From: Raillietiella orientalis
Taxonomy: Eukaryota
Direction: 5' to 3'
Assembly (NCBI GenBank): GCA_036172245.1
Contig: JAYWIR010000076.1
Span: 124,001 to 188,000, forward strand
Length of the DNA: 64,000 nt
Positions within the stretch are counted from its first letter, which is position 1. Each line of letters opens with the position of its first letter. Shown one piece after another: positions 1-43,289 of this stretch. The notes beneath the pieces were generated by a model that saw only the letters and a list, made by a program, of their open reading frames with translations, did no database searches and was not told the DNA's origin. A program made the translations under genes and the position numbers.

Positions 1-264
1 TCGGCAGACCAGGGAAACTTTCGTCAACGCTATCGGACCACTTGCGGTTGATAATAGAGATTATGCCACGCGACAAAGGACCACCATCCAGGGCGTGGCG
101 TATACCAGGGGACTGGACGCGCATCTCCGGTGCAGCGGAACATCTCCGTCAGTTCCTCTGAAGTGTCATACTCCGAAACCTCGAAGACTGGGACCGCATG
201 AAGATCTCGGTATGCGAGTTCTGCGAGAATTTCCCTTTGCACCGCCTGCCCCAGGAATTTGGTG
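1..264 (+). mobile_element. Element Z: ORF2 fragment (end of APE endonuclease plus linker) of an L1/Tx1-type retrotransposon; host of element A
   Basis: Reads LSDHLRLIIEIMPRDKGPP..WRIPGDW..WDRMKISVCEFCENFPLHRLPQEFG, matching the same region of the other copies. Stops abruptly at the 3' terminus of A. Confidence 0.85.
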
Positions 265-3200
265 TTACAACCCGGGTACGCCCAGGACGATTATTAAAAA
301 AAACTCTACAATTGCGGTACCAGGCCCCGCTCACGGCCTTATGCACACGATCTACCGGTACGCCGGGACGCAGCCCGGCGTGGCACTCCCCGGCAGCGAC
401 AGGGGATGGGGAAAAAACAGAAGTGAAATAAAAAAACCACAAACAAACAAAAGAGGTTGGAGGGCAGGGAAGGGATCATCGTTCGCTGAGAGGAGGGCCC
501 ATCCGTTGAAGGAAGCCCTCGAAGTCCATCCGTATCTTCCTTAGTTGGGGCCATCGAGCAGCTCTCCGCAAGAAGCGTTGGGCATATGGGATGACATCCC
601 TCGCGTGTTGACCCACTTCTTCCTTGTTAGTGTCGCTATATGCCGCCACGATGCCACGGACGCAGCACCAGGCTGCAAGGGCTGCGGCTGGATGCAGGGC
701 GTCCTTCACGAAGAGGGGCCGAAGAACGTCTATAGGGAACTGCCCGTAGGGAGACCGAGGATCGTACCAAATCGTTCCCAAAGGGGACGAAGGGCAGCAC
801 AGTCCACAATAAGGTTGGAGAGCGATTCCCGCTCTCCGCACCTGACACACGCAGGATCCACAACTCCTCTTGTCCAGTGAGAGCATAGTGCGTTGCAGGG
901 TAAACCCCAATGCAACAACAGCAACGCCGACTCTTTCCAATTAAGGAGTAGGATCCTGGATTCCTGAAGAAGCGGGGGCCACTTCAGCACATCCATAGGG
1001 ATGACCAGCAGCTCGCCCCATCTTCTCAGTCCTCGCAACTGGACGCTCGGTGTTGTGGCGTCGGCCAGTTCTCCTGTTGTCCAGCCGCTGATCAACTTCT
1101 CGCGTCCCTTGATGCAGCAGGAGACATGCCACCTTGTCGTCCGGCTGCTGTGAAGTGCCCTCCTCAGGAAGGGCAGCGCCGTAGCTAGGCAGGTCGTCTC
1201 TGCCCACGTGCATCTTACTGGAATCTCCAGGAGATTCCGCAGCGTGCGGCGGGCGAAGGGGCTGCATCGGAGACGATTCCACGTTTCGTGGCTCCTCTGG
1301 TTAACCGCTACCCACGTTCCAATATTCACCTCCAGCCAGGCGGGGGAGTTGGCGGGGCAGCAAACCATCCAGCTGTTCTCCTTGGCCAATATAGCCATGC
1401 GCCCGAGCAGTAGGCCGCATCTTCGCATCTTCCGGCCACGGCTCAGAAGAAAAGACGCGAGTCCATCGCACTGGGACACACGGCTGGCCAGGAGGCGGGC
1501 TGGAGTGCACCAAGGAGTGCTCAACATCTTCGCTGCGATGGCGAGGGTTCGCCACTGCAGCTGATTCTCCACGCGCTCCAGCGTCAGGAGGCGAAAACCG
1601 CCGTCGCGACGCGGAGCGCACAAGTCCTTCAGAGGGACTCGGGGCCTCCCCTTGCCCCAAAGGGCGATACGGAGGAGGTCCTTCGTCCTGTTCTTGGATT
1701 CCACGGTGAGGGGCATACAAAAAGCAAGGGGCGGAGGATAAAGGCCGCAAAGGCGTTTCAAACCGCGGCCCGTTCCGGCAAGTGAAACTTGCCTTCCAGG
1801 AACGGGCCGATCGCCGGCTCGTCTTTTTGGAGGCAGCTGGACCACGCTTCCGCAGGGGAGGAGTCCCCCAACGGCACACCGAGGTACTTGAAGCACCTCG
1901 CCGTAGGGATCCCCAAACAGATTCAGTCCTGCTGCCCTGCCCACGCCGCACCTATCGGCACAACCGACGACTTCGCCACTGTTAACCTGCTGTCCGGTCC
2001 CGCGACTGAGCAGATCGAAGAAGTTTCCGTCCGCCTTTGCCGGGGTAGACATTGGCAACAAATGCAGAAGATCGTCGGCGTACGCTGCTACGGCGGGAGT
2101 GCCGGGGCACGAGCTCGGCAAGGGGGCCAAAGTCTCCCTGTAAGCTCTCAGCACCATCTCAAAGTAGGTGCTGAAGAGAAGGGGGCTGAATCTATCGCCC
2201 TGTCTTATGCCCCGCCGCAACGGCACGCCATACACCTTCTGTCCACTGAAAGACACGGTAATCATCGCATTCCGCCAGCAAGAGCGCAAATAGGAAATCA
2301 GGGAGGGTGGGAAGCCCATGCGACCCAGGAGCTCCAAGAGGAGTTCCTGGTCTACACAGTCGAACGCCTTGTGGAGATCGACTGCGAGCGCTAGGGCCCC
2401 CTTCCCCGCCCGGGGATCCCTTTCCAGCCCGTCTGGCGGCCCCAATGTGGGGTTGCCGACTTTCCCTATCCCTTTCTTTTCTCTTCTCTGCAGGTGCACC
2501 CATGTGCTTTCGAAGAAGAGGTTGGCATCCATACTTCGCCCGGGAACAGCATAAGTCTTCTCCGGGCTAATTACCGATTCTGCCACCTGCCCCAGACGCG
2601 AAGCCCATAGCCCTACTATCAACTTGGCGTCCGTATTCACGATCGTGATCGGACGCCAGTTCTTTAAATTCCTGAGGTCTCCCCCTTTCGGAAGGAGCCT
2701 CACTCTGGCTGACCGAAACGAGACGGGAACATCGCCTTCGTCTCGGATCAGCCCGATCAACTTGAGCAGCAGGGGTGCCAGCTCTTCCGTGAAGCTCTGA
2801 AAGAACTTCGCTGGCAAGCCGTCTTCCCCTGGAGCTTTACGCCTCTTGAGCCTTTTGATACCGGCGAGAATTTTGCCGGTGGTAAAAGGCTCGTCGAGGC
2901 TTTCCATCTCCTCGTCCCCTATTGCCGGGGCGCCATCGGGAAGCAAGAGCCGAGAGGCGTTTCGATTCGGGGGCTCCCTGGCGTAAAGGGAGGAATAAAA
3001 ACTCCGCACGACATGCCGTACCGACGCCGGGGACGAACATTCCCGGCCCTGGTCGTCCAGCAAGCTGGCCGACCCGGAGTGCCAGGCTTGGCGTTCGGCC
3101 CCGCCGCGGCACTCGGCCAGGCGACGGACATTAGGGGTTCTTTCGTACCTACGAGCCTGTAGATAGGCTTGATGGTTGCGAGCACCGTCGTTGAATCCGG

Positions 3201-3282
3201 GGGGCAGGCGATTAAGGGGGAACTGCTCACAGAACTCGCGGACCGATTCCTTAAAAAGGTCCCAGTCCTGGAGATTCCGGAG
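265..3282 (-). mobile_element. Element A, 3' part (linker, RT, C-terminus, 3' UTR); continues at 31765-32103
   Basis: RT motifs WRPITIVN, DLHKAFD, GIRQGD, AYADD and C-terminal CVRCGERE. Terminal hairpin motif at 265-295. Interrupted at agattccggag (3272-3282). Confidence 0.9.
476..3282 (-). pseudogene. Element A ORF2 (reverse transcriptase), frameshifted
   Basis: ORF 730..3063 (777 aa) plus a shifted C-terminus ending at 476. Confidence 0.88.
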
Positions 3283-3367
3283 CGTCGAGCGGACGTGTCT
3301 TTTCGTTGCTCCTGAGTTTCATTTCCGTTGGTGCTTGTGCGTGGTGTTGGTGGAGGATTAGGCGGAA

Positions 3368-5016
3368 ATGCCTGATACCACCACCGGTGAGGTTCCGGGG
3401 GCGATGATCTCATTGACTTCACAGCAAATGGAGGTGGGGGCTCCCGCATCAGTGGAGACTTCCGCCAGCACGGATGCGCCCCGGCCCTACCCAAGGCTTG
3501 GAACGCCGTGGCAGCGGCACCTACGCCAGCGGCTATGGCGGAAATGCGCGCTTACCTGAAGGAGTGGTATCACCCACCCCTTCTATATAAGGTAGGCGGT
3601 CTATATCCTCCTGTGAACGCGCGCGCCTTCTCACAGGCGATGCGCGTTCTCGGCGTACAGAAAAAGGAGCTTCTGGCTATGTCCGTCAGAAGCGGGGGTC
3701 AATTTGTGGTAGTTATCTGCAAGGAGGCAACTCTTGCGCACAGACTTCTGCGAACCCCCGTAATTATGGGCAGCCGAAGGCTTCTACCAATTACTGAAGA
3801 CCGGTCGGTGATCATTCACCTGACCGGTATCACGTTCCGGATGACGAAGGAGGCCGTCCGGAACGAATTGGAAAAATTCGCAACTGTCCACGCGCTGTGG
3901 GGAAAGTCTACTCCTTTTGTCGATTACGACGGGGTGCTTGGCGGCCTGGGTGCATCGCGAGTGACGGTTCGCGAGGGATGTGAGGTTCCCCACAAACTCA
4001 CCGTCAACGGTGAATCCGTTGACGTGTGGTACGTGGGGAAACCCAAGTTTTGCGGCTGCTGCAGCAGCTTTGGTCACCTTAAAATGAGGTGTCCGAGCGT
4101 GCAGTGCCAGCAATGCAACCAAGCGGGGCACACCCGTCTTGTGTGCCCCCGAAACACAGTCCGCGTAGTGTCCTCGAAAAACGCGAGAAAGCGCGCTGCT
4201 AAGAAGAGTAAAAAGCTGGCAGCTCGTGTTGCTGCTAAGGAGGTCACTTCCGCCACCAAGGCGAAGGCCAGCCTCGACACCCCGGCGAAAAACGCTGAAA
4301 AGGTCGAGGGTGAGGGTCAAGAGCCAGGGTGGCAGAAGGTCGATCCCAAGAAAAACTCCCATAAGAAGGGAAAGAACGTGGCGAAACGGAGCGAAACCGC
4401 TCTGCGCCGCGAAAAAATTAAAAGCTGCTGCGTCGTTGTAGAGCGGATTCCCGCCATCGACGGATGCGGCGCTAAAGAACTCGCTGCCGCCCCTGCTCAA
4501 CCCTCCGTTGACAAAGTCAACAAGGAGGGGAGCGAGGCGGCGGCGTCCGTCAGCGGAAGGGGAAGCCGGACGCCATACGTCGCCTTCGAGCGCGCCGCGG
4601 AGGAGCTGGCTGCCTCGCTGCAGCCGGTTGCCCCCGAGGCTGGCAAGAAGGCCGTAAGGCGTCCGGCTTCCCCTCAGGAGTCGGCCACTTCCGACCCCGA
4701 GGTGAAGGCCGGAAAGACAGCATCCATCTCCGCGGCACCCCGCAAAAAGGCAGGACGAAAGTCCACAATGCCCCGGAAGATCGTTTCCCCCGACGAAGGG
4801 GAAGAGATGGCTTCCGGTAGCGAGGGTGCCATGAGCGTGGGAAACTCCCGGGACCCGTCGCCCGAGAGAATTCCACGCTCGGACACGGAGGGGATGGTGA
4901 GGATGGAGGCCGAACAGGTACCCCAGGCGCCTGAAGAGGCCTCCGTCCTCGTACCGATGGACCTTTCCTACACCTGCCCCGCGGCAGGTGTCGCGACGCC
5001 ACTTTCCCAGCCATAA
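3368..5016 (+). pseudogene. Element E ORF1, gag-like protein with two CCHC zinc knuckles (one frameshift near 3490)
   Basis: CGCCSSFGHLKMRC and CQQCNQAGHTRLVC knuckles and a basic low-complexity tail. The stop overlaps the ORF2 start (TAATG, 5014-5018). Confidence 0.85.
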
Positions 5017-5167
5017 TGCCGGAAATCGCCTCTCGCCGTCGTCTTCTGATCGCCTGTTGGAACGTGAACGGGCTAAGCGACGACGGCAAGAGGCGCGACG
5101 TGGCCGCCACCCTGGCATCCTTCGACCTGGTGCTGCTGCAGGAGATCCACGTGATCTCCGCAGATCA

Positions 5168-5179
5168 AGCCCGGGAGAT
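5168..5179 (+). repeat. Target-site duplication of B1/B2: agcccgggagat (copies agcgcgggagat 11109-11120 and agcgcaggagat 17070-17081)
   Basis: Three near-identical 12-mers flank and separate B1 and B2. Removing the insert restores the E ORF2 frame A-R-E-I-E-R-I. Confidence 0.9.
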
Positions 5180-5532
5180 TTCTCACCCGGTCACGCCGGG
5201 GCGTTTATTCCATATAACATAACGAAAAAAAGCAATTATACAAAATAAACCAGTTGGGAACCAAACTCCCAACCGACGACTGAACAAGAATGAAGAGAAT
5301 ATTGCTGGCACGCAGGCAAGAGTAACAGTTTTGTGAACGGTGTGGGGGGGCGGGAAACACAAAGAAACCAAAATAAAATAAAAACAATGAATAAGGAGGA
5401 CGGGATAAGGGTCTTTGGGATCGCTCTGGAAGACACGGGGATAAAAGCATGGGCACCGGAACTTTTACCGAGCAAACAAGGACGGGGTATGGGTGGGCAA
5501 GAGGTCGCAGGGGTCACCGGATTACGCCGTTC

Positions 5533-8500
5533 TCAAAGGTGTGTAAACCGGCGATGTATGCCGGTGATGTCCCCATTCACCTTGTCACGAAGATGAGACC
5601 ACCTTGAAGCCTTCTCCATGAATTGTGCTGCAAGCAGGTGAGCCTCCCTTCGCTGCGAAGACAACTCCAGGGCGTAGCGGGCCTTCACGATGGCGCGAAC
5701 GCAACACATGTTTGCGACAATCGCGCCAACCGAAAGTCCATTTCTGCTAAAGAAGCGCCGCAGCACATGAATGGCAGTGCCTCCTTGTGGCATGATGGCC
5801 GAAGTGAGCCTTCGCCACAGTTCCCGGAGGTCACCGCAGTCCAGCAAAAGGTGCGGACAAGACTCGATCTCTCCGCACCTTAAACAGTTTGGCAAAGCAG
5901 CTCCCCCGGAAACGATGCTTCGCTGCCTATTACAGTGAAATGCACAATGTAAAAAGAGCAGCACATCTTGTTTCCACTTAAGGGGGAACACGGAGCTGTC
6001 CAAACAAACGGGAGGAACCACTATCTCTCCGAGGGGCACACTTAAATGTTCGCTCCACCGAAGCAGTCCCTTCGCCCGATTCCGAGGTGTGGCGGCTTGC
6101 ACCAGCTCCTTTGTCGTCCAGCTGCCGAGGAGCTTACTGACTCAACCTATTTTGCAGGAGAACTCCCATTCCGCCGGTAGGCAACCGTCGTTGCTTGCCC
6201 TGAGTGCAGACAGCGCTTCGGCGAGTGATGTGGCGGCCAGACGATCCGCCAACTTCTTGTCCTGCATGACTTCGTCCATTTGATGACTGAGGAGAAGTCG
6301 CAGGCGTCGAAGATCTTCCGGCCGCGTTCCTTCGGAAGCCGCCCACAATGAAAAAGATTCCTGCCGCCATTCATTAATGTTCATGGGGCGGCAGGAGATC
6401 CAGCTTTGGGCTTCCAGCAGTGAGGACAGCTGCCTGAGCGGGAAGCCAAACCCTATTCTGGTGTGCCGAAAGTGGGGTAGCAACGAAAGCAGTCCCTCGC
6501 TTCCCGCGCAGCGCCTCAGTATAAGGCGTGCGTGTAAGCACCACGGCGTACACCACAGCTTGGCACAGAGCCGCAGCATGCGAAACTGCACCTGCAGTTC
6601 GATGCTGTTTAAGTCGAGGATGCCCAAGCCTGAATCCTGACGCGGCGCCACCAAGTCTTTAAGTCTAACACGGGATCTTGCAGCGCCCCACAACGCTTTG
6701 CGTAAGAGGCGCTGCGCCCAGACTTTGACTTCCTGGGGGGGTGGACAAACAAAAAACAGGGGGCGGAGGAGGGGGGCAACGAAGGTGTTCCAGATGCAGG
6801 CCCGTTCCGGCAAGACGAACTCGCCTCCTGAAAACGGGCCAAGTGCACGCTCTGCCTACCGAAGGCAGCCCGACCACGCTTCTGAGATGCAGAAGTCGCC
6901 CAACGGCACGCCAAGGTACCTGAGGTACCTGCCCGTGGGGATCCCCAGGTCGATCCAGTCGGACTGCCCCTCCCACGTCGCACCCACCGGAACAACCATA
7001 AACTTACTCCTGTTAACGCTCACGCCCGCACCGCGACGAATCAACTCAAAGAAGTCTTCAAGCGATGTCGCCGGGGTGGACATGGGCAACAGAAGAAGCA
7101 GGTCGTCGGCATAGGCTGCCACGGCAGGCGTACCTGGACAATGGCTCGGCAGGTTGGCTAGCGTCAGCCTGTAAGCCTCCAGCACCAATTCAAAATAGAT
7201 GCTGAAGAGCAGCGGGCTTAAGCTGTCACATTGCCTAATTCCTCGTCGTACCGGCACGCCGTACACGCGACAGCCACTGAAAACAATGGATGTAATCTTG
7301 TGACGCCAGCAGGAGCGCAAGTACGCCAACAGGGATGCCGGAAGACCCATACGTTCCAAAAGCTCAAGAAGAAGCTTTTGGTTCACGCAATCGAAAGCTT
7401 TGTGCAGATCGACTGCAACTGCACAGGCTACTGGGGTTTCGCTTTGCGACCCGTGCCTCCGTTAGTGAGAGATCGAAGGCGTCGCTACCGCATGACGATC
7501 CATTGCCACGCGATGATTCAATGGTAGCCATGTGCGGATGAACAAGAGGTTCGCGTCCATGGACCGCCCAGGAACAGCATAGGTCTGCTCCGGAATCACC
7601 AAAGACTTCGCGATCCTCCCCATCCGCGCCACCCAAAGTTCCGAGAACAACTTGACGTCCGGGTTCACTAATGTGATCGGACGCCAGTTTTTCAGTTGGC
7701 GCAAATCTCCGCCTTTCGGCAGTAGACGCACCTTCGCTGAGCGAAACGAGGCGGGGACATCGACCGAGTCTCGCATCAGTGACGAGAGTTGGAGCATCAG
7801 GGGGATGAGCTCCGCCGCAAAACACTGAAAGAATTCCGCGGGGAGCCCATCTTCGCCTGGCGCTTTTCGTCTCTTGAGCCCCGAGATGGCCGAGGAAATT
7901 TCCTCTGCCGTGAAGGGCTCATCAAGATGCGCGCTTTTCTCCTCGTCTACAACAGGTGCATCAATCGGCAGAAGCAGCAGGGAGAAGCTGCGTTCCGTCG
8001 GTGCCTCTGCATACAGAGAAGAGTAATAGCGCCTGACTATCCGTCGCACGTCGGCTGGAGCCGAGCATTCCCGGTGCTGGTCGTCGAGCAGAACTGTCGC
8101 CCCTGACTGCCAGACCTGGCGCTCGGCCTTGGCCTTGTACTCGGATAATCGACCAACGTCCGCGTGCCTGGAAAAGGAGCGGGCCTGCAGAAAATCTCTG
8201 CTGTTGGCTACGCCCTCTCCGAAGCCGCGCGGAAGCTGGTGCAAGGGAAACCGGCAGCAGAACTCGCGGACCGATCTTTTCAGATCGTCATAGTCCTCGA
8301 GCTCACTTATGGCAAAGCCGAGGAGGTACTGGCGAAGCTGCTCAGCCGCCTACGGGTGCCTTAGCCAGTCTGCCGGCATCCTCCAAAAACAGTTTGGAGG
8401 CCCCTTGCCTGACGGGAGCAATTCAAACTCGAGCCTGTTGTGGTCTCAAAGCACGGACGGCGCGGGACCTCTCCGACCCACTCGACACAGCAAGTGTTCA

Positions 8501-9087
8501 TCAAGGTATACGTGGTCCGGCGTTGCTGCCATAACAGGATCGCTAGCAAACAAGTTCCACGCGTGCACGGACGCGCACATCTCTTCCGCTAGCAACTTTT
8601 CCCTTTTGTGGGATCTATTCTCGGAGGGAAGGTGGACGTTAAAGTATCCCGCAATCAGATGGGCCACAGTAGGGTGAGATCGAGTGAGCCACTGGCTTTG
8701 AAGGGTACCGAAGAACTCAATCCTTTCGGCCCATCGTCCAGCACCGCTCGGCGCGTATACGTTGGTTATGACAAGGTCGATCGAGTCGGACAACTTGAGT
8801 ACAAGCTGTCCCACTCGGCCTTCCGTGTCGAAACGAACGCTGCGCACCGCTGTTGCCAAAGTTCCTCGCACGAGGAAAGCGACGCCGCACCTATAAAGTA
8901 GCGTTCCGCCCGCGCGCCGCTGGATTTCGGCAGCCTGCTCACCGGAGATGCTGTGAATCTCCTGCAGGAGCGTCAAGTCGAAGGCGCTCCGAGCGTCAGC
9001 CACTAGTCGCCTCTTCTCCTCGTGTTGGAGCCCGTTGACGTTCCAAGACGTTACGGCAACACGACGAGCAGACGCGATTGCTCTCAT
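5533..9087 (-). pseudogene. B1 ORF2 (APE + RT + Cys/His), broken by frameshifts and stops
   Basis: ORF pieces 8446..9090 (WNVNG, LQE, NVYAP), 7462..8244, 6856..7386 (YADD), 6142..6813 and 5533..6102. Confidence 0.9.
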
Positions 9088-10991
9088 CACGGCTGGGAAA
9101 GCGAGGCCGTGGTACTCGCCTCACCCGGCGAGCGGGCAGTAAGCAGCACAAAGGGGGTGGTGGACTCGGTCGCCACCGGCCTCAACTGTGCTGCACGTAA
9201 TCGGGTGCTCCTCCCCGGTATAGAACCTGTGATTTCCGAGGTGAGCACTCGCCGTTCCGCGGCGAGTGTGTCACGCCTCAGGGCTTCAGTCCTGCGGGCG
9301 CTCGCTCCCGCGCGAGATACGCGTCCTTCAGCTGCGTTATCGGACTCCTTAGCGGAGTCTGATGCTCGCACGATCGACGTGCGTTTGTATCCGTCCGATT
9401 GCACCGGAATGGTCTTCTCGGCGGTCACAGAAGCGGACTTGCACGCGTTGAAGGCGCTGGCTTTTTCCTTGGAAGAGTCACAAGCCGCGCGTGTTTTCGT
9501 ATTCCCGCGACTGCTTTTTCCTTTGGAAGAGCTCAGGGATGGAGGTTGCGGAGCTTTTTTTGGGGATTTTTCTTTCCTCCTCTTCACAACCTTCCATTCG
9601 CCTTCGCGATTTTCGGAGGCTTCCGCGACAGTAGTTGCGGAAACCTTCGGGATTTTCGCTGCGTTCTCTGGGGGCGTTGCTTTCGCTACGCCTTTAAAAA
9701 ACGGCAACGGAGTCACCTTCTCGACAGTCGGGAGATTGCTCCTCTCGTGCCGAGTCGGCGATGGGGCGACTGCATGCAGCGTGCTTTTGCTCGTCGCGAC
9801 GCTGCTTTTTACGGTTTTCGTAGCCTTTGCAGTGGGGCCTGCGCTGCAGTGGGGCTGTCCGGAACTCCGGAGGGACAACGGAACGGGGCAAGAAGTCTTC
9901 GCACTGTTGCGATCTTCCTGTTTTCCTACCTTTTCCTCCAGTGTGTTACGGAGATTTCCTGGTTCCAGGCTCGGAAAGGTGCCTGCGAGTTCGGCAGAGA
10001 GGGAAGGCACGGCACGCGTCAAACCCTCGCGCCCCTTTTTAATTGGCTTCCCCGCCGTTACTTTCCCCTTTCGGGGCGTTGCGGGCGGGGATGCTTTCTT
10101 TTTATCCGCGGATCGCTCGTGGTTTTTTTCGAGTTTTAGCGGACGAGGTTCTTTATTTGCCGCTGCGGCTTTTCGTGCAGTGGTCTCTTGAACCCGACGA
10201 ATTTCCGCTGCGGCTCTTTTTCTTGCAAGTACCGGGCACTTTTTGATTTCGTGCCCGGAATCTTTGCAATAGCGGCATCTTGGAGAGGGGCACTCTTTAA
10301 TTCGGTGCCCCTCCTTGCCGCACTGCTCGCACGCGCGACTCTGGCCTATGAACCACAGGTGAACGACCGTGCCGTTCACCTGCAGCTGCTCAGGCACAAC
10401 ACGCCTGTTCGCGACGGTGATCCGCGCGGAGGCTTGTCCAATGTGGACAGAGGGGAAATCCTTAAGAAGATTTCGCCTCCTCCACAGAGCGTGCACGGTG
10501 GCGAACTTCGCCTGCACACTTACGATATCGCGGTAGGAGATTTCCGGTTCGATGTCACACAATTGAACGACAAAAGAGTCGTCCATCGCGGTAGGTAGGA
10601 CTTCCTTGCCATTGAAGGTCAACGGCGTACGGAGAAGGCGCTGCACAAGTGCTGCGTTCTTGTACCGAATCTTCGTATTTTCCATCCTGCCAGGAGGCAT
10701 TATGGCAAGGACTTCCTCCTCGCGAACGCCGATCCGGACGAGCTCATCATTGAGCTCACGACCGATACTCCCGTTAAGGGGCCCACTGACCTTATAACGG
10801 AGTGCAGGCATGTATCCTGATGACACATATGCCTGGAACTCCGCATCGCAGGGTCCTGGTGTTTGGGAGGTAACGGCGGAGTAACTCCGCACCGGGGGCG
10901 AGGAAACCATTACGGAGGATGCGGCCACTTCAAGTGCAGCTGAAGTGCATCCAGTGGCTTGCTCCTCCACACTATCCTGTGTACTGGCCAT
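9087..10991 (-). CDS. B1 ORF1, uninterrupted 634-aa gag-like zinc-knuckle protein
   Basis: CEQCGKEGHRIKEC and CRYCKDSGHEIKKC. Ends in a TGATG overlap with ORF2 (9085-9089). Confidence 0.85.
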   Translation of the reverse strand: MASTQDSVEEQATGCTSAALEVAASSVMVSSPPVRSYSAVTSQTPGPCDAEFQAYVSSGYMPALRYKVSGPLNGSIGRELNDELVRIGVREEEVLAIMPPGRMENTKIRYKNAALVQRLLRTPLTFNGKEVLPTAMDDSFVVQLCDIEPEISYRDIVSVQAKFATVHALWRRRNLLKDFPSVHIGQASARITVANRRVVPEQLQVNGTVVHLWFIGQSRACEQCGKEGHRIKECPSPRCRYCKDSGHEIKKCPVLARKRAAAEIRRVQETTARKAAAANKEPRPLKLEKNHERSADKKKASPPATPRKGKVTAGKPIKKGREGLTRAVPSLSAELAGTFPSLEPGNLRNTLEEKVGKQEDRNSAKTSCPVPLSLRSSGQPHCSAGPTAKATKTVKSSVATSKSTLHAVAPSPTRHERSNLPTVEKVTPLPFFKGVAKATPPENAAKIPKVSATTVAEASENREGEWKVVKRRKEKSPKKAPQPPSLSSSKGKSSRGNTKTRAACDSSKEKASAFNACKSASVTAEKTIPVQSDGYKRTSIVRASDSAKESDNAAEGRVSRAGASARRTEALRRDTLAAERRVLTSEITGSIPGRSTRLRAAQLRPVATESTTPFVLLTARSPGEASTTASLSQP

Positions 10992-11476
10992 GTTGCACTA
11001 TGCTACTTGGCAGATTGCACAGGAACACACAAGTGCGAGCAAAAACGCAGGCACAAAGTTGCCCGATCGTTGGCGCGGAAAGACGCGGAAACACGTCTGC
11101 ACTGTACGAGCGCGGGAGATTTCTCACCCGGTCACGCCGGGGCGTTTATTCCATATAACATAACCAAAAAAAAAAGCAATTATACAAAATAAACCAGTTG
11201 GGAACCAAACTCCCAACCGACGACTGAACAAGAATGAAGAGAATATTGCTGGCACGCAGGCCAGAGTAACAGTTTTGTGAACGGTGTGGGGGGGCGGGAA
11301 ACACAAAGAAACCAAAATAAAATAAAAACAATAAATAAGGAGGACGGGATAAGGGTCTTTGGGATCGCTCTGGAAGACACGGGGATAAAAGCATGGGCAC
11401 CCGAAATTTTACCGAGCGAACGGGGACGGGGTATGGGTGGGCGAGAGGTCGCAGGGGTCACCGGATTACGCCGTTC

Positions 11477-14400: not shown

Positions 14401-15049
14401 ACGGCACGGGACCTCTCCGACCCACTCGACAGAGCAAGTGTTCATCAAGGTATACGTGATCCGGCGTTGCTGCCATAACAGGGTCGCTAGCGAACAAGTT
14501 GCACGCGTGCACGGACGCGCACATCTCTTCCGCTAGCAACTTTTCCCTTTTGTGGGATCTATTCTCGGAAAGCAATTGGACGTTAAAGTCCCCCGCAATG
14601 AGATGGGCCACAGTAGGGTGAGATCGAGTGAGCCACTGGCCTTGAAGGGTACCGAAGAACTCAATCCTTTCGGCCCATCGTCCAGCACCGCTCGGCGCGT
14701 ACACGTTGGTTACGACAAGGTCGATCGAGTCGGACCACTTGAGTAAAAGCTGTCCCACTCGGCCTTCCGTGTCGAAACGAACGCTGCGCACCGCTCCCGC
14801 CAAAGTTCCTCTCACGAGGAAAGCGACGCCGCACGTACGTGCAACGCCGCACCTATAAAGTAGCGTTCCGCCCGCGCGCCGTTCGATTTCGGCAGCCTGC
14901 TCTCTGGAGATGCTGTGAATCTCCTGCAGGAGCGTCAAGTCGAAGGCGCGCAGAGCGTCAGCCACTAGTCGCCTCTTCTCCTCGTGTTGGAGCCCGTTGA
15001 CGTTCCAAGACGTTACGGCAACACGACGAGAAGACGCGATTGCCCTCAG
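11477..15049 (-). pseudogene. B2 ORF2 (APE + RT), interrupted by in-frame stops
   Basis: ORFs 14309..15052 (GDFN, SDH), 12497..14188 (YADD) and 11477..12427 lie in the same frame. Confidence 0.9.
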
Positions 15050-16952: not shown

Positions 16953-17081
16953 GTTGCACTATGCTACTTGGCAGATTGCACAGGAACACACAAGTGCGAG
17001 CAAAAACGCAGGCACAAAGGTGCCCGATCGTTGGCGCGGAAAGACGCGGAAACACGTCTGCACTGTACGAGCGCAGGAGAT

Positions 17082-17805: not shown

Positions 17806-18022
17806 TTCTCACCCGGGTACGCCCGGGGCGTTTATTGAAAAAAGTCTACATAAACGTGGTACAAGGCCCCTCTAACGGCCACACAACACCGGACCTGCCG
17901 GGACGCCGGGACGCAGCCCGGCGTGACGCTCCTCGGCAGTGGAGGGGGATAGGGATCAAAACAAAAAGAAAAATAAAGATATCAAAAGAAAAACAAAAAG
18001 AGTTTGGAGGGAGGGGAAGGGA

Positions 18023-23335: not shown

Positions 23336-23380
23336 CGGACACCAACGATGTTCCACACGAACACACACAAAGAAAAAACA

Positions 23381-25611: not shown

Positions 25612-25837
25612 TTTACACCCGGGTGCGCCGGGGCGTTTATTTCTTTAATAAAAAAAAATAAACAAGCAAGTGTAGGGCTATCGCCCCTACAGTGTTCAGA
25701 ACATGTTCTTCTGAACTCGCCGAGTGGGCAGTACGCAGGCTCTCAAGGTCGATTCGGCAGCGGAGGGGGAAGGGACAAATAGAAAAAAGCAAAAAGAAAA
25801 CACTATTTACAAAAGCAGGGAGGGGTTGGGGAAGGGA

Positions 25838-28800: not shown

Positions 28801-29427
28801 CCTGCCCACGCGACAGCGCAGGTGATCGTCGAGGAAGACGTGGTCCACGCTCCGTTCCATCCCGGTATCCCCGGCTAACAAGTTGGATGCGTGCACCGCA
28901 GCGCACATCTCGTTAACCGGGGTGGCCTCTGTCCTCGCCGCACCTGATAGCAGGCGAATATTAAAATCGCCGGCTATCAGGTGCGCCGTGCGCGCGCCTG
29001 CCTCCGACAGCCAGTCGCGCTTGAACGCACGGAAAAACGCCGTCCGTGCCACGCGCGCGTGGCCGCCGCTCGGCGCGTACACGTTCGTGACGACGAGATT
29101 GATGGAGTCGGACCACCTGAAGGTGATTTGCCCGACCCGACCTGCCTCATCGAAACGAACTTTCCGCACCGCGCGTTGTAAGGCAAACTTCAGAAGGAAA
29201 GCGACCCCGCGCGTACGGCGGTGGCCGCATCGCCACATAAGCTGACCACCTGCTATCCGTTCGATCTCCCGCGCATGTTCTGCGGAAATCTCATGAATCT
29301 TCTGCAGCAGCACGAGGTCGAAGGCTTGCAAGGTGGCAGCTATGTCTCGTCTCCTGCCGTCATCGCAAAGCCCGTTGACGTTCCAGCTGGCGATGCGTAT
29401 TTGACGGCAGGTGGCGAGTCCCGGCAT
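25838..29427 (-). pseudogene. D ORF2 (APE + RT + Cys/His), interrupted by in-frame stops
   Basis: ORFs 28513..29427, 28042..28377, 26665..27951 (YADD) and 25861..26637. Confidence 0.9.
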
Positions 29428-31025
29428 TACTGCTGGGAAAGTGATGCTGCGTCTCCCGCCTCACCTAGGGGCGGGACGCCGGCTTTCTCCTGTGCGGTGG
29501 GGGGCGGCTTGACGACCCCTCTGTCTCCATCGGCTTCGTCTCGACCGATCGTGGGAGTTCAGGACTCGTGTCCATCTCTTCCACGCTCGCCGCACCCTCG
29601 TTTCCGGAGGATTCCCCTTCCTCGGAGGAAACGATCCTCCTTGGGTTACGGATTTTCCTTCCGGTCTTCCTCGGGGGTGCAGATGCGGATGGTGCGTGTC
29701 CGGTCTCCGGGTCCGAGTCCGAGGTCCCGGTCCCCCTCCTCTCGGCCGGACGTCGAACGGCCTTCTTCCCGACCTTTGCGGGAGGCTGCTGACTGGCGGC
29801 GAGCTCGGCGGCGGCTTTTGCAAAGCCAGCGTCATCGCGGCTCCCCCTCGCCGCAGCCCTCGGACGCTGTTTGCACAGCGACGGGGCTGTCAGCGTTGTT
29901 GCACACGGCAACGTCCTGTTCGCACGGCACTTCGGCGTCTGCAAGGCGCTCCAGTGCGACCGTGCATTTTTTCAGTCCCTGCTTTTTCGCGGGTTTCGCG
30001 GTTTTTGCAGGGACTTTATTTTTATTATTTACGTCCTTTTTTTCTTTCTTTTTCTTTAGACTGACCTTTTGCCAGCCAGGCTCTTCTCCTTCCACCTCGG
30101 TTGCCTGCGTTTCTGCAGACGGGGTGGTCGGGATGCCCTTTTTGGCTGGCTCCGGGTCAACCGTATTTTCAGACGGCGGCCTGGTCTTGCCAGGCTTCTT
30201 GCTGGCGTTCGTGCCGCTCACGGCAGCAGCCGGCGCGCGCGAAGTATTTTTGGGGAACACTTCTTCCGTGTGCCCGATTGCCTCGCACTTGCGGCAGGTG
30301 ATGTTGGGGCAGCGTTTCTTCACGTGCCCCGTACCATCACAAAACGCACAGTATTTGGGTTTCCCCAGATACCAGATGTCGACAGAATCTCCGTCGACTA
30401 CTAGTTTATGGGGAACCCCAATGTCCTTATTCACAGTCACACGTGCCGCGGCGAGTCCGCTCAGGAGTCCGTCATAAGAACGGAACCTGTTGGGCTTTAG
30501 CCACAGCGCGTGTATGGTGCCGAATTGGCTGAGTTCAGCCCTAACGGCGCTCGGTGACATCCGCACGGTGATTCGACGGAGGTGGACAACTACTGAGTTG
30601 TCCACCGGGACAGGGAAGATCTGGCGGCCCTCGACCCCGACGGGGGTTCGCAGCAGTCTTTGCGCCAACCCTGCTTCTTTGCAGGTCAACTCGACATGCT
30701 GTCCCCCGCTGCGGATGGAGAGACCTAGCAGATCCTCCTTGTTAACGTTCAAACGGTGGAGCTCCTTCTGGAAGGAGCGCGCCACACGGTCATCAAACAG
30801 CCGGCCTACCTTATACAGCAGACTCGGGTTGTAGTTGTAGGCCTTGTAGGCCTGGGCCTCGGCGATGGCCGCTGCAGATGGCGCGGCGACCGCGGCGCTG
30901 TAGTCCCTCGCCGGCGCGGGGTACGAAGCTTTCGGGGCAGGTGCCCCTATCTCCATGGGTACGGGGGACGTTCGCCCGGCCACCACCCCACATTCACTAG
31001 TGGCGGGATCAGGCATTTCTGCCAT
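29427..31025 (-). pseudogene. D ORF1 (zinc knuckles, frameshifted tail)
   Basis: CAFCDGTGHVKKRC. ORFs 29832..31175 and 29465..29944. Confidence 0.84.
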
Positions 31026-31112
31026 CCCCCGACCACTGATGCACCGCACTACACCAATAAAGTCGAGCGAGTCAAGAGCGCGCAGAGAACACGTCTGACC
31101 GTCGGCACTGCT

Positions 31113-31764
31113 GGTGTTGCATTGGGGACTTCCTTGCAACGCCCGCCCACACCACTGGACGCGGGGGGGTGTCAACCCTAATTGTGTTAGGTGCGGGGAT
31201 AGGGAATACCTCCATCACCTGTTAGTGGATTGTGTTGCCCTCCGTCACTTGTGGGAACGCTTTGCCGCAGCCCTGGGGATCCCCGGAGGCAACCCCTGAG
31301 ACGCATTGCGCCCCCTCTACGTCTGTAACGCCCTGCCTCCTGCGGCCTCGCTTGAAGCCCTGTGCTGCCTACGCGGGAACGTCGTGGCATGGAGCAAAGC
31401 GACGGGAGGATCCAGCGACAGGGATGCCAACGTGTATGCCGCCCGTTTCCTCAGGATGGCGACGCGATGGCCCCATCTGGAACCACACACGCAGAAACAG
31501 CTTGCCGGCATCCTCCAGAGGATGACGGACCCTCCCAGCAGAATGTGATCCCTTCCCGCTCCCTCCCTGATTTTTGTTTATTTTTTGTTTTCTTTTTGTT
31601 TCGTTCCCCCTCCCCTCTGTTGCCGAGGTCGACCGCGCCGGTCTGCGCACCGGTAGCCCGGCAGGCTATATCTTTCCAGGGCGTGGCTGGACTACTGGTG
31701 CAGTCACAGATTTTATAGGTTTATTCGTGAGAATAAACGTCCCGGCGCACCCGGGTTTCAATCA
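31113..31764 (+). mobile_element. Element E segment 4 (ORF2 C-terminus, 3' UTR, terminal hairpin)
   Basis: CVRCGDREYLHHLLVDC, stop at 31546-31548, AATAAA at 31732-31737 plus CCCGGcgcacCCGGG, then TSD agattccggag at 31765-31775. Confidence 0.9.
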
Positions 31765-32103
31765 AGATTCCGGAGAGTGACCCCTCTCAGCTTTTCGCGA
31801 AGGTGTTCCTTCGCACCTGAGAGTCGCGTTTAGTCCCCCGGCAGACGGCAATCCCTGGATGGCGGTCCTTTGTCGCGAGGCTGCATCTCGAAAATTAACC
31901 AGGAATGGTCCGACAGCGTTGACGCAACCCTCCCCCGTTTGCCGACCCGCAACACAGGTCAGCGTCGAGGAAGACGTGGTCGATGCTGCGCACCATTCCC
32001 CTCTCACCCGCGAACAAGTTGCGCGCACGCATGGCGACGCACAACTCGTTCATCGCGTTCACTTGGGTTTCCGGCTCACCTGTTAGCAGACGGAGATTGA
32101 AAT
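31765..32103 (-). mobile_element. Element A, second segment (APE C-terminal half); starts with the 11-bp TSD shared with 3272-3282
   Basis: Reads FNLRLLTGEPETQVNAMNELC..IDHVFLD..LSDH..EHLREKLRGVTLRNL and joins to QDWDLFKESVREFC at 3271. Confidence 0.87.
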
Positions 32104-35900: not shown

Positions 35901-35909
35901 GATTGAAAT

Positions 35910-38900: not shown

Positions 38901-40240
38901 GAAAGTCTCTACTGTTGGCCACGCCCTCTCCGAAACCGCGTGGAAGCCGGTGCAAGGGGAATTGGCAGCAGAACTCGCGGACAGATCTTTTGAGATCGTC
39001 CCAGTCCGCAAGTTCTTGAATGGCAAAGCCTCGGAGGTATCCACGTAGATGCTCCGCAGCCTCCGGTTGGCTAAGCCAATCCGTCTGCATCCTCCAGCTT
39101 TGCAACGGAGGCCCCTGCCTGGCGGAAGGATCTCAAACTCCAACCTGTGGTGGTCAGAAAGCTTATTCAACAATCTTCCTCTCCTACCCACACGCGAATG
39201 CAGGTTTTCATCGAGGAAAACGTGATCAAGCGATCTTTTCATTCCAGGTTCGCTGACCATCAAGTTGGCGGCGTGCACGGACGCGCACATCTCGATGGGC
39301 AGCGCGCGCTCCCTCCGGCGGCTCCAATCGTCGGAGAGCAGGCGGACTTTGAAGTCCCCATCGACGAGGTGCGCCACTTGGAAACCGGAGTTGTTGAACC
39401 AGTGGCTCTGCACCTCACCAAAGAAAGCTATTCTTTCTTCGAGGTAGCGAGAGCCACTTGGCGCGTAGACGTTCGTAATGACGAGATCGATGGACTCGGA
39501 CCACTTGATTACAAGCTGGCCTATCCGTCCGTCGTCATCGAAACGAACACTACGCACCGCTTCCGCCATTTTTCCTTTTACGAGGAACGCGACGCCGCAC
39601 GTGTGTGCGCCGCCGCACCGCCAATGTAGCGTTCCGCCTGCGCGCTCCTCGATTTCGGCTGCCTGCTCGTCGGAGATTACGTGAATCTCCTGCAGGAGCG
39701 CGAGGTGGAAGAGGCGCAGGGCGTTGGCTACTAATCGCCTCTTCTCGTCGTTCTGTAGTCTGTTCACGTTGCAACACGTTACGGACAGACGACGAGAAGA
39801 CGCGATTCCCTGAATTACTGCTGGCATGTTGGCGGCTTTTTGCTTCCTTTGATTGGCTAGCGGATGGTAAGCAGCACTGCTGGCTGGAGATCACGGTCGC
39901 GACCGTCCGCCCTGGTGCTGCACGAATTCGAGTGCTCGTCTCCGGGTAGAGTCTTTTGACGGTTAAAAAAGCGGACGAAGGACCTCTACCGTATCGCACT
40001 TCGGGCAACGGGAGGGCTCGGGTCCGCTTGTGAGATTTTTGCGCTCCACGTGGTGACGTTGATCTCGGTCATCGGACATTGGAGCGGCTGGAGCTTCAGA
40101 TCGAGTTCCCAATGTTGTCACTTGTGCCGGAGTAGTGGTGCACCTGCTGGTGCGTCCCTGCATGTCTCCTCGTCAAGAAAGCCACTGGAAAGACAATACT
40201 AACGTCGTTTCTTTCACTCTGTGGATCCTGCATCAACCGA
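35910..40240 (-). mobile_element. Element C2, tandem to C1; full-length but broken ORF2, 5' truncated within ORF1 (right boundary approximate)
   Basis: 3' motif 35910-35939, RT 37396..38526 (YADD), APE 38745..39827. Confidence 0.87.
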
Positions 40241-40244
40241 TGTG

Positions 40245-41390
40245 GGCTCCAGATGCGGAGGGTGTCCGCCTTGGTTCGGAAAAATCAAGGATTGATCACC
40301 TGTCGCCCCTCGAACAGTGGTATCTGGTTGCTGGAAACTGTTTGCACGTGGGGACAGTTCGGCATGCAACGCTCCCAACAGGAACGACGGTTTCTGTTTG
40401 GGGGTTATAGAAGTTGCACGCTCCGAGAGGTCCTGAAGGATCCGAAGAAACGAGCGTGGTCAGTAAGAACCCCCATCGCTGCTGAGCTGGACTCCCTAGT
40501 GGAAGATCAGGACAGCGATGTTGCGGCGAAGTGGGTGGTTTCAGTTACAATCTGCGGAAAGGAGGAGAAGCTAGGAGAGTGGAAGACGGGTCAGCTGACT
40601 GCCTCCCCAAGTACGCCTCCCCATGGACTTCTGCGCTGGGGCGCGTTGCTCGACATTTCCATTGAACATCTGAAGTGGCCCCCGGTACTAATGAAAACCT
40701 CCACCCTCCCCTTGAAATGGCAGGTGTCGGCTCTCCTGTTGCAGCACTGGGAACTCCCCTGCAACGCCCGCCGACACCACTGGACCTGGGGAGCGGAATA
40801 TCCCAATTGTGTTAGATGTGGGGAACGGGAGTGCCCCTCCACCTGCTTGTGGATTGTGTTGCCCTTAGGCCCCTTTGGTTTCGCTTTAACGCGGACATCG
40901 GAATCCCCTGCGGCAACCCCAGGGACGCACTGAAAGCCCTCTTCGTTGCCGACGCCCTTCGGCCAGCGGCCTCGTTAGCAGCTTTGTGCTGCCTACGCGG
41001 GATCGTCACCGCTTGGAGCAAGGCTACGGGAGGACAACGCGACCAGGGTGCCATCCAGCCAGCCTCCCAGTTCCTGAGGAGGGCGTCCCGATGGCCCCAC
41101 CTGGATCCAGGAATACAGAAGGAGCTTGCCGGCATCCTGCAAAGGATGCAACGGCCCCACCAGCAACTGTGATCCCTTCCCTTACCCTCCCAACTTTTCT
41201 TTTCTTTTTTGTTTTGTTTTTTGTTTTTCCCCCTTCCCCCTGCTGCCGTGGTGGACCGTACCGGTCTGCGAACCGGTGACCCGGCAGGCTCTGTGTTTCT
41301 TCGTGCGTGGCTGGAACCATGGTGCAGCCACTGCACGTCTTTGTAGAAGTTTATTTTACAATAAACGCCCCGGCGAAATCCGGGTGAAAA
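40245..41390 (+). mobile_element. Element G, 3' fragment (left boundary approximate)
   Basis: ORFs 40253..40933 and 40816..41172 (CVRCGERE, HLLVDC). AATAAA at 41360-41365 plus CCCGGcgaaatCCGGG-TGAAAA. Confidence 0.87.
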
Positions 41391-42186
41391 TCGAACGCCT
41401 TATGGAGATCGACTGGGATCGCTGCGAGCCCCTTCCCCGCCCGGGGGTCCCTTCCCAGCCCGGCTGGCAGCCCCAATGTGGGGTTGCCAACTTTCCCTAT
41501 CCCTTTCTCTTCTCTTCTCTGCAGGTGCACCCATGTGCTTGCGAAGAAGAGGTTGGCATCCATACTTCGCCCGGGAACAGCATAAGTCTGCTCCGGGCTA
41601 AATACGGATTCTGCCTCCTGCCCCAGACGCGAAGCCCATAACCCTGCTATCAACTTGGCATCCGTATTCACGATCGTGATCGGACGCCAGTTCTTTAAAT
41701 TCCTGAGGTCTCCCCCTTTCGGTAGGAGCCTCACTCTGGCTGACGTAAACCAGGCGGGAACATCGCCTTCGTCTCGGATCAGCCTGATCAACTCGAGAAC
41801 CAGGAGGGCCAGCTCTTCCGCGAAACTCTGAAAGAACTCCGCGGGCAAGCCGTCCTACCCTGGCGCCTTACGCCTCTTGAGCCTTTTGATACCGGCGAGA
41901 ATTTCACCGGTCGTGAAAGGCTCATCGAGGCTTTCTCTCTCCTCCTACCCTATCGCCACGGAACCACTAATGAGCAATCTCCGCAAGGCGTCTCGTTCGG
42001 GTGGTGTTTTTTGGCGTAAAGGGAATAATAAAAACTCTGCACGAGATTCCGTACCGCAACCGGGGACGAGCGTTCGCGTCCCAGGTCGTCCAGCATGCTG
42101 GCCGACCCGGATTATCAGGCTTGCCTCTTGGCCTCGGCGCGGTATTCAGCCAGGCGACGAACATTGGTGGTCCTCTCAAAAGGATG
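41391..42186 (-). mobile_element. Element H, A-like ORF2 fragment (linker and RT N-terminal half); host of G
   Basis: Closely matches A 2360-3140 (VHLQRREEKGIGKVGNPTLG..DLHKAF). Confidence 0.87.
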
Positions 42187-43247: not shown

Positions 43248-43289
43248 GAAATGCAATCTGTGTAATACTATTTACCAGATTGCAATTTC
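43248..43289 (-). promoter_or_regulatory. Rolling-circle origin: stem-loop with the nonanucleotide TAGTATTAC
   Basis: Arms gaaatgcaatctg and cagattgcaatttc enclose gtaatacta (43262-43270), the reverse complement of TAGTATTAC. Confidence 0.92.

Follow-up and report, generated by a model that had tools for sequence, protein, structure and literature searches.

The pile and its elements

The first 42,186 nt of the window, by which I mean the whole 64,000-nt stretch of Raillietiella orientalis DNA analyzed here, consist of LINEs nested within LINEs (Table 1). Eleven elements can be counted (Z, A, E, B1, B2, F, D, C1, C2, G, and H), and since the pile continues past the left edge of the window, 42 kb is its minimum size. 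Related LINEs, as judged by self-BLAST and by tblastn with ORF1 and ORF2 of one element as queries, cover all of it but 12 stretches totalling 3,446 nt, and every one of these falls within element boundaries, in UTRs and the tails of ORF1. An earlier note on this DNA had described 42 kb without unique sequence and with no other class of transposable element, and both descriptions hold: only this group of LINEs was found in the pile. By the same searches, no copy of the group lies in the 21.8-kb flank past position 42186, where the sole match is one unrelated 117-bp repeat pair. The GC content of the pile is about 58% (0.54-0.63 in 2-kb bins throughout positions 1-42000), as against 30-49% in the adjoining flank within the window (0.30-0.49 by bin).

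Table 1. Elements of the pile, and the pieces into which some are divided, by position in the window. Amino acid (aa) coordinates of ORF2 refer to B2, the reference element; TSD, target site duplication.
Feature	Positions	Strand	Description
Z	1..264	+	ORF2 fragment to ~aa 307 (tblastn: aa 221-307 at 3-263); cut by window start; hosts A, junction at 264/265
A piece 1	265..3282	-	degenerate 3' motif followed by ORF2 from aa 1198 to 276; 862-aa open frame, 730-3318; terminates in left E TSD copy (3272-3282)
E piece 1	3283..5179	+	5' end with GACGTGT motif, ORF1 (open 3391-5016), ORF2 aa 1-66; terminates in 11-mer target copy of B pair (5169-5179)
B1	5180..11109	-	full length, with 5' and 3' motifs, ORF1, and an ORF2 that has in-frame stops
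B2/B1 spacer	11110..11120	-	ATCTCCCGCGC on element strand; copy of target 11-mer
B2	11121..17070	-	full length, 5,950 bp; ORF1 16958..15387; ORF2 15082..11477, 2 in-frame stops
E piece 2	17071..17805	+	third 11-mer copy (17071-17081), then ORF2 aa 62-307
F	17806..23379	-	near full length, without 5' motif; sits in E
E piece 3	23380..25611	+	ORF2 ~aa 317-1062; terminates in left D TSD copy (25600-25611)
D	25612..31100	-	full length; 12-bp TSD, GTCGGCACTGCT on + strand
E piece 4	31101..31764	+	right D TSD copy, ORF2 C-terminus (aa 1058-end), 3' UTR, 3' motif (1 mismatch)
A piece 2	31765..32103	-	right E TSD copy (31765-31775), ORF2 aa 281 down to 165, to GDFN codons
C1	32104..35900	-	5' end and ORF1 present; ORF2 to ~aa 583, then ~88 last nt of 3' UTR (internal deletion)
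C2/C1 spacer	35901..35909	-	ATTTCAATC on element strand; A's DFN codons
C2	35910..39946	-	3' motif, ORF2 aa 1200 down to 8; without ORF1 and 5' end
G	39961..41390	+	5'-truncated; ORF2 ~aa 805 to end and 3' motif; antisense in H at KAFD codon
H	41391..42186	-	ORF2 aa 583 down to 322; 86.5% identity with A; 5'-truncated end adjoins non-LINE DNA

The elements begin with a sequence that includes GACGTGT, kept in five of the 11 (E, B1, B2, D, and C1), and end in AATAAA, a short GC hairpin, and GTGANAA. There is no poly(A) or A run at any of the nine visible 3' ends, which finish instead with the hairpin followed by GT(G/T)NNAA or a close variant. All seven 3' ends that were folded gave a predicted hairpin (z from -0.4 to -1.8). 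The 3' motif AATAAACGCCCCGG-N4-6-CCGGGT occurs seven times in the window and not once in 100 shuffles, and degenerate copies, with 1 and 3 mismatches, mark where E and A, respectively, have their 3' ends.

In ORF1 there are CCHC knuckles, and ORF2 encodes an endonuclease of the AP type, a reverse transcriptase, and a putative Cys motif. With its stops read as X, ORF2 of B2 matches Exo_endo_phos (E 8e-11, aa 25-233) and RVT_1 (E 1e-19, aa 477-744); of 18 long ORFs that were scanned, seven contained RVT_1. The ORF2 translation shows GDFN and SDH motifs, as well as a C..C...H....C-like string near the C-terminus, for which no Pfam zf-RVT match was reported. Among solved structures, which were all that the comparison of reverse transcriptases covered, the best match is human L1 ORF2p (E 3e-46), with R2 proteins at E 2e-13 or weaker. 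By that comparison the group is classed as L1-like, and the label L1/Tx1-type given to it earlier stands as far as L1-like and no further. Outside the group, identity to the closest relatives does not exceed 37%; these are unnamed or "hypothetical" proteins, including some of arachnids and fish. The window elements together with P0001 form a clade of their own (support 100/99). The single lineage of the earlier note is indeed one related group, but one made up of three subclades with DNA identities of 54-76%.

The block is a genuine nest of no fewer than 11 copies, which belong to three sister subclades of a single isolated L1-like group of non-LTR retrotransposons. TSDs and rejoined ORF2 frames agree on the proposed order of nesting, in which A entered Z, E entered A, and the B pair, F, and D entered E; the insertion of G into H is likewise borne out. 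Element E was said to lie in four pieces within an 11-bp TSD, and so it does: both copies of the TSD, AGATTCCGGAG, are exact, and the pieces rejoin in ORF2 order. The insertion of C1 and C2 into A is supported on the 3' side only, for on the other side the 5' end of C2 adjoins G head-to-head and a TSD is absent. It follows from this junction that the 5' part of A, the right part of Z, and the 3' part of H are missing. The region has thus also been rearranged by events other than insertion, and such events could in principle produce tandem copies as well.

Sites of insertion

All seven insertion sites fall, as had been claimed, within ORF2 of a relative, at about aa 64, 165, 279, 307, 307, 583, and 1060. 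ORF2 makes up 61% of an element, so the probability that all seven would land there by chance is 0.61^7, or 0.03. The TSDs are 11 bp for E, 12 bp for D, and 11 bp, in three copies, for the B pair; that of C is at least 9 bp and is found at two of the three expected places. For F there is none, and its insertion site lacks about 20 bp of E. No consensus emerges across the seven target sequences. D, E, and G, all of one subclade (G as placed by DNA similarity), use different sites, at aa 1060, 279, and 583.

Two of the insertions coincide. With the same orientation, the 3' ends of A and F join Z and E, respectively, at one homologous nucleotide. Seven events make 21 pairs, and with about 11,900 slots of position and orientation the chance of such a coincidence is about 0.002. 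Nor can one junction be a copy of the other, since a copied composite would diverge equally in its two parts, whereas Z and E are 62.7% identical across the 261 nt before the junction and A and F 76-78%. The recurrence counts toward sequence-directed insertion. Counting against it are homologous sites that are empty in other copies: the site used by A and F is present in nine copies within the window and is filled in two, and D carries the exact 11-mer of the B spacer, yet unoccupied.

Then there are the tandem pairs, B1 with B2 (95.1% identical over 5,975 aligned columns) and C1 with C2 (94%). The two members of each are separated by a copy of the target duplication at that place. The B spacer matches each flanking copy of the 11-mer at 10 of 11 positions, the three 11-mers differing from one another at one or two, while the C spacer is identical (9/9) to the 9 nt of A right after C1. 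Tandem insertions around a TSD are reported for SINEU-3, mobilized by Tx1 elements, and are attributed there to sequential insertion (PMC4494074). Spacers of this kind are an established mark of site-specific insertion that occurs sequentially.

The divergence within the pairs is uneven (index of dispersion: B1/B2, p = 1.6e-8; C1/C2, p = 1.3e-7), and the peak consists of true substitutions, misalignment having been ruled out. In ORF2 of B1/B2, dN/dS is 0.49 and differences are distributed 58/48/76 by codon position (p = 0.036); those of C1/C2, at 24/28/22, have no bias. Uneven divergence, together with the dN/dS and codon bias of B1/B2, argues against a single insertion that was duplicated in place and then decayed neutrally.

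Another source of evidence is X1, one public run of short contigs in which 10% of sampled words were found. Most of the 329 X1 contigs aligned to the window are 90-95% alike to it, and are therefore paralogues. One joins position 25599 to 31101, representing an E-like copy without D; 10 nt fit both sides, and since the joint fits the 12-bp TSD, D is a true insertion. Another joins 17768 to 23392, an E-like copy without F, though the joint is weak, with 22 nt on one side. A third, of 3,755 nt, is about 97% alike to the region of C1 (32197-35909).

A model for the growth of the pile

I lean, if only somewhat, toward the view that these lineages target specific sites in sister elements. The pile grew by target-primed reverse transcription into ORF2 of resident copies. 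Insertion, I propose, would be guided by sequence, each lineage nicking the ORF2 DNA of its relatives at defined nucleotides. The lineage of A and F would nick after the GFG codons, near aa 307, and that of B at the 11-mer at aa 62-66, both inserting antisense; the lineage of C would nick at the GDFN codons, inserting in the sense orientation. If so, a multicopy LINE family would itself offer a safe place to land, and every landing would also disable a competing copy. I infer that the specificity of the endonuclease is the cause and that it would operate genome-wide. The clusters may be self-perpetuating, as the earlier note suggested.

Its central idea, that sister elements are the target, fares unevenly. 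For it are the entry of A and F at the same nucleotide and the two pairs with TSD spacers, so that the window favors targeting more strongly than the note had recognized; against it are the use of three sites by D, E, and G, the lack of a consensus among targets, the empty homologous sites, the even codon positions of C1/C2, the missing TSD of F, and the rearrangement at the C2/G junction. The distribution also counts in its favor, with seven of seven sites in ORF2 of relatives, no copies in the flank, and no other class of element in the pile. The recurrences that support targeting number three, all within this one window, and at least one copy is not in a relative, since H borders non-LINE DNA. 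A bolder version of the idea has a guild of sister lineages, each with an endonuclease that evolved its own fixed point of cutting within ORF2 of its relatives, a hyperparasitism of LINE upon LINE. This I put forward tentatively, as a plausible but doubtful extension.

A different account supposes that insertions are essentially undirected and accumulate passively in an island or in heterochromatin that tolerates them, while selection purges them elsewhere. The tandem pairs would come from unequal exchange between the short TSDs, and the coincidence of A and F from a structural nick hot spot or chance. Much agrees with this: the lack of consensus among targets, the scatter of D, E, and G, the many homologous sites left empty, the absence of codon-position bias in C1/C2, and a C2/G junction that speaks of regional rearrangement. 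But a graveyard should gather several classes of transposable element, and here there are none. It is also unlikely that exchange took place between repeats of 9-11 bp lying 6 kb apart, twice in 42 kb, and the overdispersed divergence of the pairs speaks against duplication in place. With the low odds of an exact-nucleotide recurrence added, I judge passive accumulation unlikely, though a rival to be taken seriously.

Still less probable is targeting that is regional or compositional, without sequence specificity. The elements would prefer a chromatin state, such as the centromeric one proposed for Zepp/ZeppL, or GC-rich DNA, which in an AT-rich genome would be mostly their own copies. The contrast in GC between pile and flank and the diversity of the target sequences fit this idea, and the clusters of Zepp, nested and one per chromosome, are reported also to be GC peaks (PMC3446292). 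It leaves unexplained the recurrence at an identical nucleotide and, in both pairs, the spacers equal to TSDs, and the C target, ATTTCAATC, is AT-rich.

Finally, an assembly artefact, by chimeric collapse or mis-joining of dispersed copies, might be suspected from how short, sparse, and largely paralogous the X1 contigs are, but it is scarcely credible: mis-joins follow homology and would not yield matched TSDs of 11 and 12 bp or frames that rejoin across inserts of 5.5-12 kb, X1 contigs occur in all 30 bins of positions 17000-36999, and the empty-site contigs match the predicted boundaries.

Comparison with known systems

LINEs with a fixed target site are already known from host multicopy genes, microsatellites, and transposons of other classes. 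In the rDNA-specific LINEs of the R1/R2 type, lineages hold different fixed sites in one multicopy target, and the endonuclease sets the site. The safe-haven logic of targeting sister elements would be the same, except that the R1/R2 target is a gene array maintained by the host and the target here is the parasite family itself.

Tx1-clade LINEs, as described in PMC4494074, resemble the present elements in their AP endonuclease, their membership in the L1 group, and their tandem copies around a TSD, and would, under the model, share with them insertion at one set point of a mobile element present in many copies and a difference in target between related families. Tx1L targets the piggyBac-type Tx1D, crocodilian Tx1-Mar targets Mariner-N4_AMi, Tx1-8_Crp and Tx1-4_AMi target LTR retrotransposons, and Tx1-9_AMi targets Harbinger (PMC4494074). 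The target proposed here differs in being the coding sequence of a sister LINE from the same group, and not a DNA transposon, an LTR element, an snRNA gene, or a microsatellite, and specificity is read from three recurrences rather than from hundreds of copies.

In self-nesting, the likeness is to Zepp of Chlorella and Coccomyxa and ZeppL of Chlamydomonas, L1-type LINEs reported to occur nearly only in nested clusters of themselves (PMC8226300, PMC3446292). The window likewise holds a nested cluster of one group, whose copies are absent from the 21.8-kb flank, although in an animal and not a green alga. Zepp arrays are described as consisting mostly of 3' ends left by 5' truncation, with each chromosome having one cluster, at a putative centromere, whereas here the 5' motif often survives and F is near full length. 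Lineage-specific fixed sites in ORF2 are not among the features reported for Zepp in those accounts (PMC8226300, PMC3446292). Animal non-LTR elements do occupy dedicated chromosomal niches, as in the HeT-A/TART/TAHRE arrays and G2/Jockey-3 islands of Drosophila (PMC5537684, PMC6581046, PMC6516634). These belong to the Jockey clade, accumulate head-to-tail or as islands, are not known to form nested antisense insertions with TSDs, and target chromosome ends or centromeric chromatin, not ORF2 of relatives.

A full-text search of the literature, with subscription journals and Repbase Reports outside its coverage, returned no LINEs that target sister LINEs at fixed sites in ORF2. What is new here is the entry of A and F at the same nucleotide, the TSD-copy spacers in both pairs, and the uneven divergence of the pairs. 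If the model is true, fixed-site insertion of LINE upon LINE would link site-specific LINEs with self-nesting clusters and explain simply how LINE-only islands arise. Such insertion would be a natural example of competing transposon lineages, and would offer related AP endonucleases with different, readily assayed specificities through which the evolution of target specificity might be studied. Should the hyperparasitism also be true, the family would be a self-renewing landing pad on which each landing destroys the reverse transcriptase of a rival, giving rise to self-seeding, GC-rich, LINE-only islands, possibly chromosomal landmarks like the Zepp islands of algae.

Extent of the pile

The earlier note described the first 42 kb as a pile of nested LINE copies belonging to one group, and within the window that description is borne out. 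LINE homology, as judged by self-BLAST and by tblastn with B2 proteins, covers 1-42186 save for 3,446 nt in 12 stretches, all of them UTRs or ORF1 tails within element boundaries. The same comparison found no LINE homology in the rest of the window past 42186. GC content is 0.54-0.63 in each 2-kb bin of 1-42000 versus 0.30-0.49 in the remainder, with a break at about 42.2 kb. Self-BLAST of the window gives numerous paralogous stretches at 64-95% identity; RVT_1 was found in 7 of the 18 scanned ORFs of the pile and zf-CCHC in one.

Elements of the pile and features of the right flank
Feature	Position	Strand	Remarks
Z	1-264	+	right part absent
A	265-3282, 31765-32103	-	5' part absent
E	3283-5179, 17071-17805, 23380-25611, 31101-31764	+	in four pieces
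B1	5180-11109	-
B2	11121-17070	-	complete; reference element
F	17806-23379	-
D	25612-31100	-
C1	32104-35900	-	internal deletion at 32195
C2	35910-39946	-	ORF1 and 5' part absent
G	39961-41390	+	5'-truncated, from aa ~805
H	41391-42186	-	3' part absent
CRESS Rep remnant	42190-44705	+	circular-ssDNA-virus-like
Direct repeats, 117 bp	42190-42306, 44590-44705		84% identical, 2,400 bp spacing; enclose both Rep-remnant ORFs
Viral_Rep ORF	43354-43743	+	E 8e-14
RNA_helicase-like ORF	43936-44385	+	weak match, E 1e-3, under Pfam's cut-off
CAP-domain ORF	52206-52667	+	intronless, 153 aa, GAPR-1/GLIPR2-like, CAP E 6.5e-23
329-aa open frame	63014-64000	+	open at window end; C2H2-like string (C..C...H...H), long Ser/Pro-rich tail; no Pfam match

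Element structure and relationships

The ORF1 and ORF2 proteins of B2, the reference, served as tblastn queries to place every piece. Its ORF1 encodes 523 aa with two CCHC knuckles and its ORF2 encodes 1,201 aa, matching Exo_endo_phos (E 8e-11) and RVT_1 (E 1e-19) when its two in-frame stops are read as X. The nearest solved structure to this ORF2 is human LINE-1 ORF2p (E 3e-46), while R2 proteins match at E 2e-13 or weaker. Disruption of ORF2 frames throughout is mainly by in-frame stops rather than frameshifts, B1 having several stop-to-stop ORFs in one frame. A, an outer and older element, retains an open frame of 862 aa.

The ends are distinctive. The 3' motif proposed in the earlier note, AATAAACGYCCYGG-N4-6-CCGGGT, has seven exact occurrences in the window and none in 100 shuffles, and the 3' ends of E and A are marked by copies with one and three mismatches, respectively. 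All nine visible 3' ends carry AATAAA, a short GC hairpin, and then GT(G/T)NNAA or a close variant; poly(A) is absent. E has a few additional bases there, TTTCAATCA, and the idea that they are the remnant of a GDFN site is rejected, for they fit the 3'-end variants of the family (CCGGGT, a few bases, ending AA). The hairpin is predicted in each of the seven ends folded, but its thermodynamic support is weak, the stability being not unusual (z -0.4 to -1.8), and its stem is too nearly invariant for covariation to bear on it (in A, one G-U replaces G-C). A 5' end containing GACGTGT is common to E, B1, B2, D, and C1; the regular expression for it also hit two unrelated places.

In an RT tree, all elements of the window that could be included form one clade with P0001, a metagenome protein of 619 aa that is 73% identical to D and 56% to A. 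The clade has support 100/99 and sits on a long branch off four outside relatives. Within it are three subclades: (D, E, P0001), (F, (A, H)), and ((B1, B2), (C1, C2)). G and Z, too short for the tree, were placed by DNA similarity, G with E and Z with F and A. An exhaustive profile-free protein search gave 34,324 matches at E <= 0.001, of which no more than 114 reach E <= 1e-30. Among the 150 matches listed, identity exceeds 40% only for P0001 and a 132-aa fragment (67%), full-length proteins otherwise reaching at most 37%. The annotations of 20 of the best relatives are blank or "hypothetical", and the Atlas gave generic RVT clusters only. The group is therefore placed, on protein similarity, only as L1-like, without a choice between L1 and Tx1.

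Turtle protein P0039 (E 4.6e-117) is rejected as a close relative, its RT being tandemly repeated and 28-39% identical. Four metagenome loci with the 3' motif had no ORF1 or ORF2 homology and are dismissed as chance matches. Pattern matches in viral contigs numbered 21, none confirmed. A search of genome contigs with the RT alignment found 13 loci in MAGs (L005-L017), none from this group; these contigs, filed as bacterial, encode LINE-like RTs 22-35% identical to the query and are probably eukaryotic contamination of the MAG bins.

Order of insertion

Junction sequences and ORF2 coordinates together give the layout. They agree with the nesting proposed earlier, in which A entered Z, E entered A, the B pair, F, and D entered E, and G entered H. 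E is cut into four, its pieces rejoin in ORF2 order, and it is bounded exactly as claimed by an 11-bp TSD, AGATTCCGGAG, at 3272-3282 and 31765-31775. D is flanked by a 12-bp TSD. F has none, and about 20 bp of E are lost at its site. G lies antisense inside H. The proposed entry of the C pair into A holds on the 3' side only, where A, interrupted by E, meets the 3' end of C1 at A's GDFN codons. On the other side, C2 abuts G head-to-head at 39946-39961, at most ~15 nt apart, with no TSD. This junction and the parts absent from A, Z, and H mean that at least one deletion or rearrangement took place.

All seven insertion sites lie in ORF2, as had been claimed; ORF2 makes up 61% of an element, and the chance of such a result is 0.03. 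Six of the seven insertions are antisense. The internal deletion in C1 begins at the KAFD codon (ORF2 aa ~583), within 1 nt of the nucleotide at which G is inserted in H (41391), a second positional coincidence that might mark a nick hot spot.

The only public DNA run found, X1 (Logan contigs, 0.10 of sampled words; no RNA run is listed), bears on these joints. Over 17000-36999 it supplies 329 contigs that cover all 30 bins; most are 90-95% alike and are therefore paralogues. One, in which 10 nt fit either side, links 25599 to 31101 and represents an E-like copy lacking D. Another links 17768 to 23392 and represents an E-like copy lacking F, but one of its sides spans just 22 nt. A third, 3,755 nt long, matches C1 at ~97% between the 5' end and the deletion point. 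These contigs support real insertions and multiple copies of the family; the joints listed, 212 loose ends and 353 pieces aside, verify bridging at a minority of the junctions at most, and the contigs are too short for flanks to be classified. The contig with the highest depth among the joints listed (21.6) links the 3' UTR of D (25659) to the region of the ORF1 tail (30036), skipping 4,376 nt, and may represent an internally deleted, non-autonomous derivative like the form of C1.

One site, used twice

A joins Z and F joins E at the same homologous nucleotide, one base past the GFG codons at aa ~307, antisense in both cases. A and F are 76% identical over 3.1 kb. With 21 event pairs and ~11,900 slots of position and orientation, the chance of such a coincidence is about 0.002. 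It might be supposed that both junctions descend from a single ancestral composite, but Z and E are 62.7% identical over the 261 nt preceding the junction while A and F are 76-78% identical, and because these identities differ that idea is rejected. Furthermore, E, the host of F, in turn inserted into A and is flanked there by a TSD.

Tandem pairs

A copy of the local target sits between the members of both tandem pairs. Three variants of an 11-mer border B1 and B2, one at each outer edge of the pair and one in between (on the element strand, ATCTCCTGCGC, ATCTCCCGCGC, and ATCTCCCGGGC). In the C pair, ATTTCAATC is the spacer and also the first 9 nt of A beyond C1, A's own DFN codons. Two explanations of the pairs are left: sequential insertion, the second element using the site that the first regenerated, or unequal exchange at the TSDs of 9-11 bp. 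The former is the published explanation for Tx1-driven SINEU-3, whose tandem copies around a TSD have the same structure (PMC4494074). Template jumping by an RT without site specificity is rejected, because such dimers would not carry the local target and the spacers match the local TSD at 10 of 11 and 9 of 9 positions.

Divergence is spread very unevenly within each pair (p = 1.6e-8 for B1/B2, p = 1.3e-7 for C1/C2), and its peak consists of real substitutions. B1 and B2 differ at 10 sites in the UTRs (a few hundred aligned nt) versus 182 in the 3.6-kb ORF2, where dN/dS is 0.49 and differences by codon position (58/48/76) show a mild third-position excess (p = 0.036). C1 and C2 show no such bias (24/28/22). 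This pattern fits two insertions from diverged sources better than the in-place duplication of a single insertion; gene conversion offers another explanation. The B1/B2 differences comprise 98 transitions, 30 of them CpG transitions, and 84 transversions.

Beyond the pile

The CRESS Rep remnant begins about 4 bp from the truncated 5' end of H. An integrated circle of more than unit length would give its repeat-ORF-repeat layout. Farther right, the GAPR-1-like ORF, best matched by crinoid (46%) and fish (42-44%) proteins, could be a retrogene.

Do the elements target their relatives?

Against the claim that relatives are the target stand several facts. D, E, and G each use a different site, no motif unites the seven targets, homologous sites are unoccupied in most copies in the window, H adjoins non-LINE DNA, and all of the evidence comes from one window. 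In its favor are the site common to A and F, the spacers that copy the target, the uneven divergence within the tandem pairs, and the confinement of insertions to ORF2. Full-text literature searches found no report of LINEs hitting sister LINEs at fixed ORF2 positions. There are published parallels: LINEs of the Tx1 clade have fixed insertion positions within DNA transposons, LTR elements, snRNA genes, and microsatellites (PMC4494074), and in green algae the L1-type Zepp/ZeppL LINEs build nested, GC-rich clusters "that target existing copies", marking putative centromeres (PMC8226300, PMC3446292). The host here, in contrast, is an animal. I conclude that the targeting interpretation is supported in part, and in a sharper form: that the sites are specific to lineages within the group.
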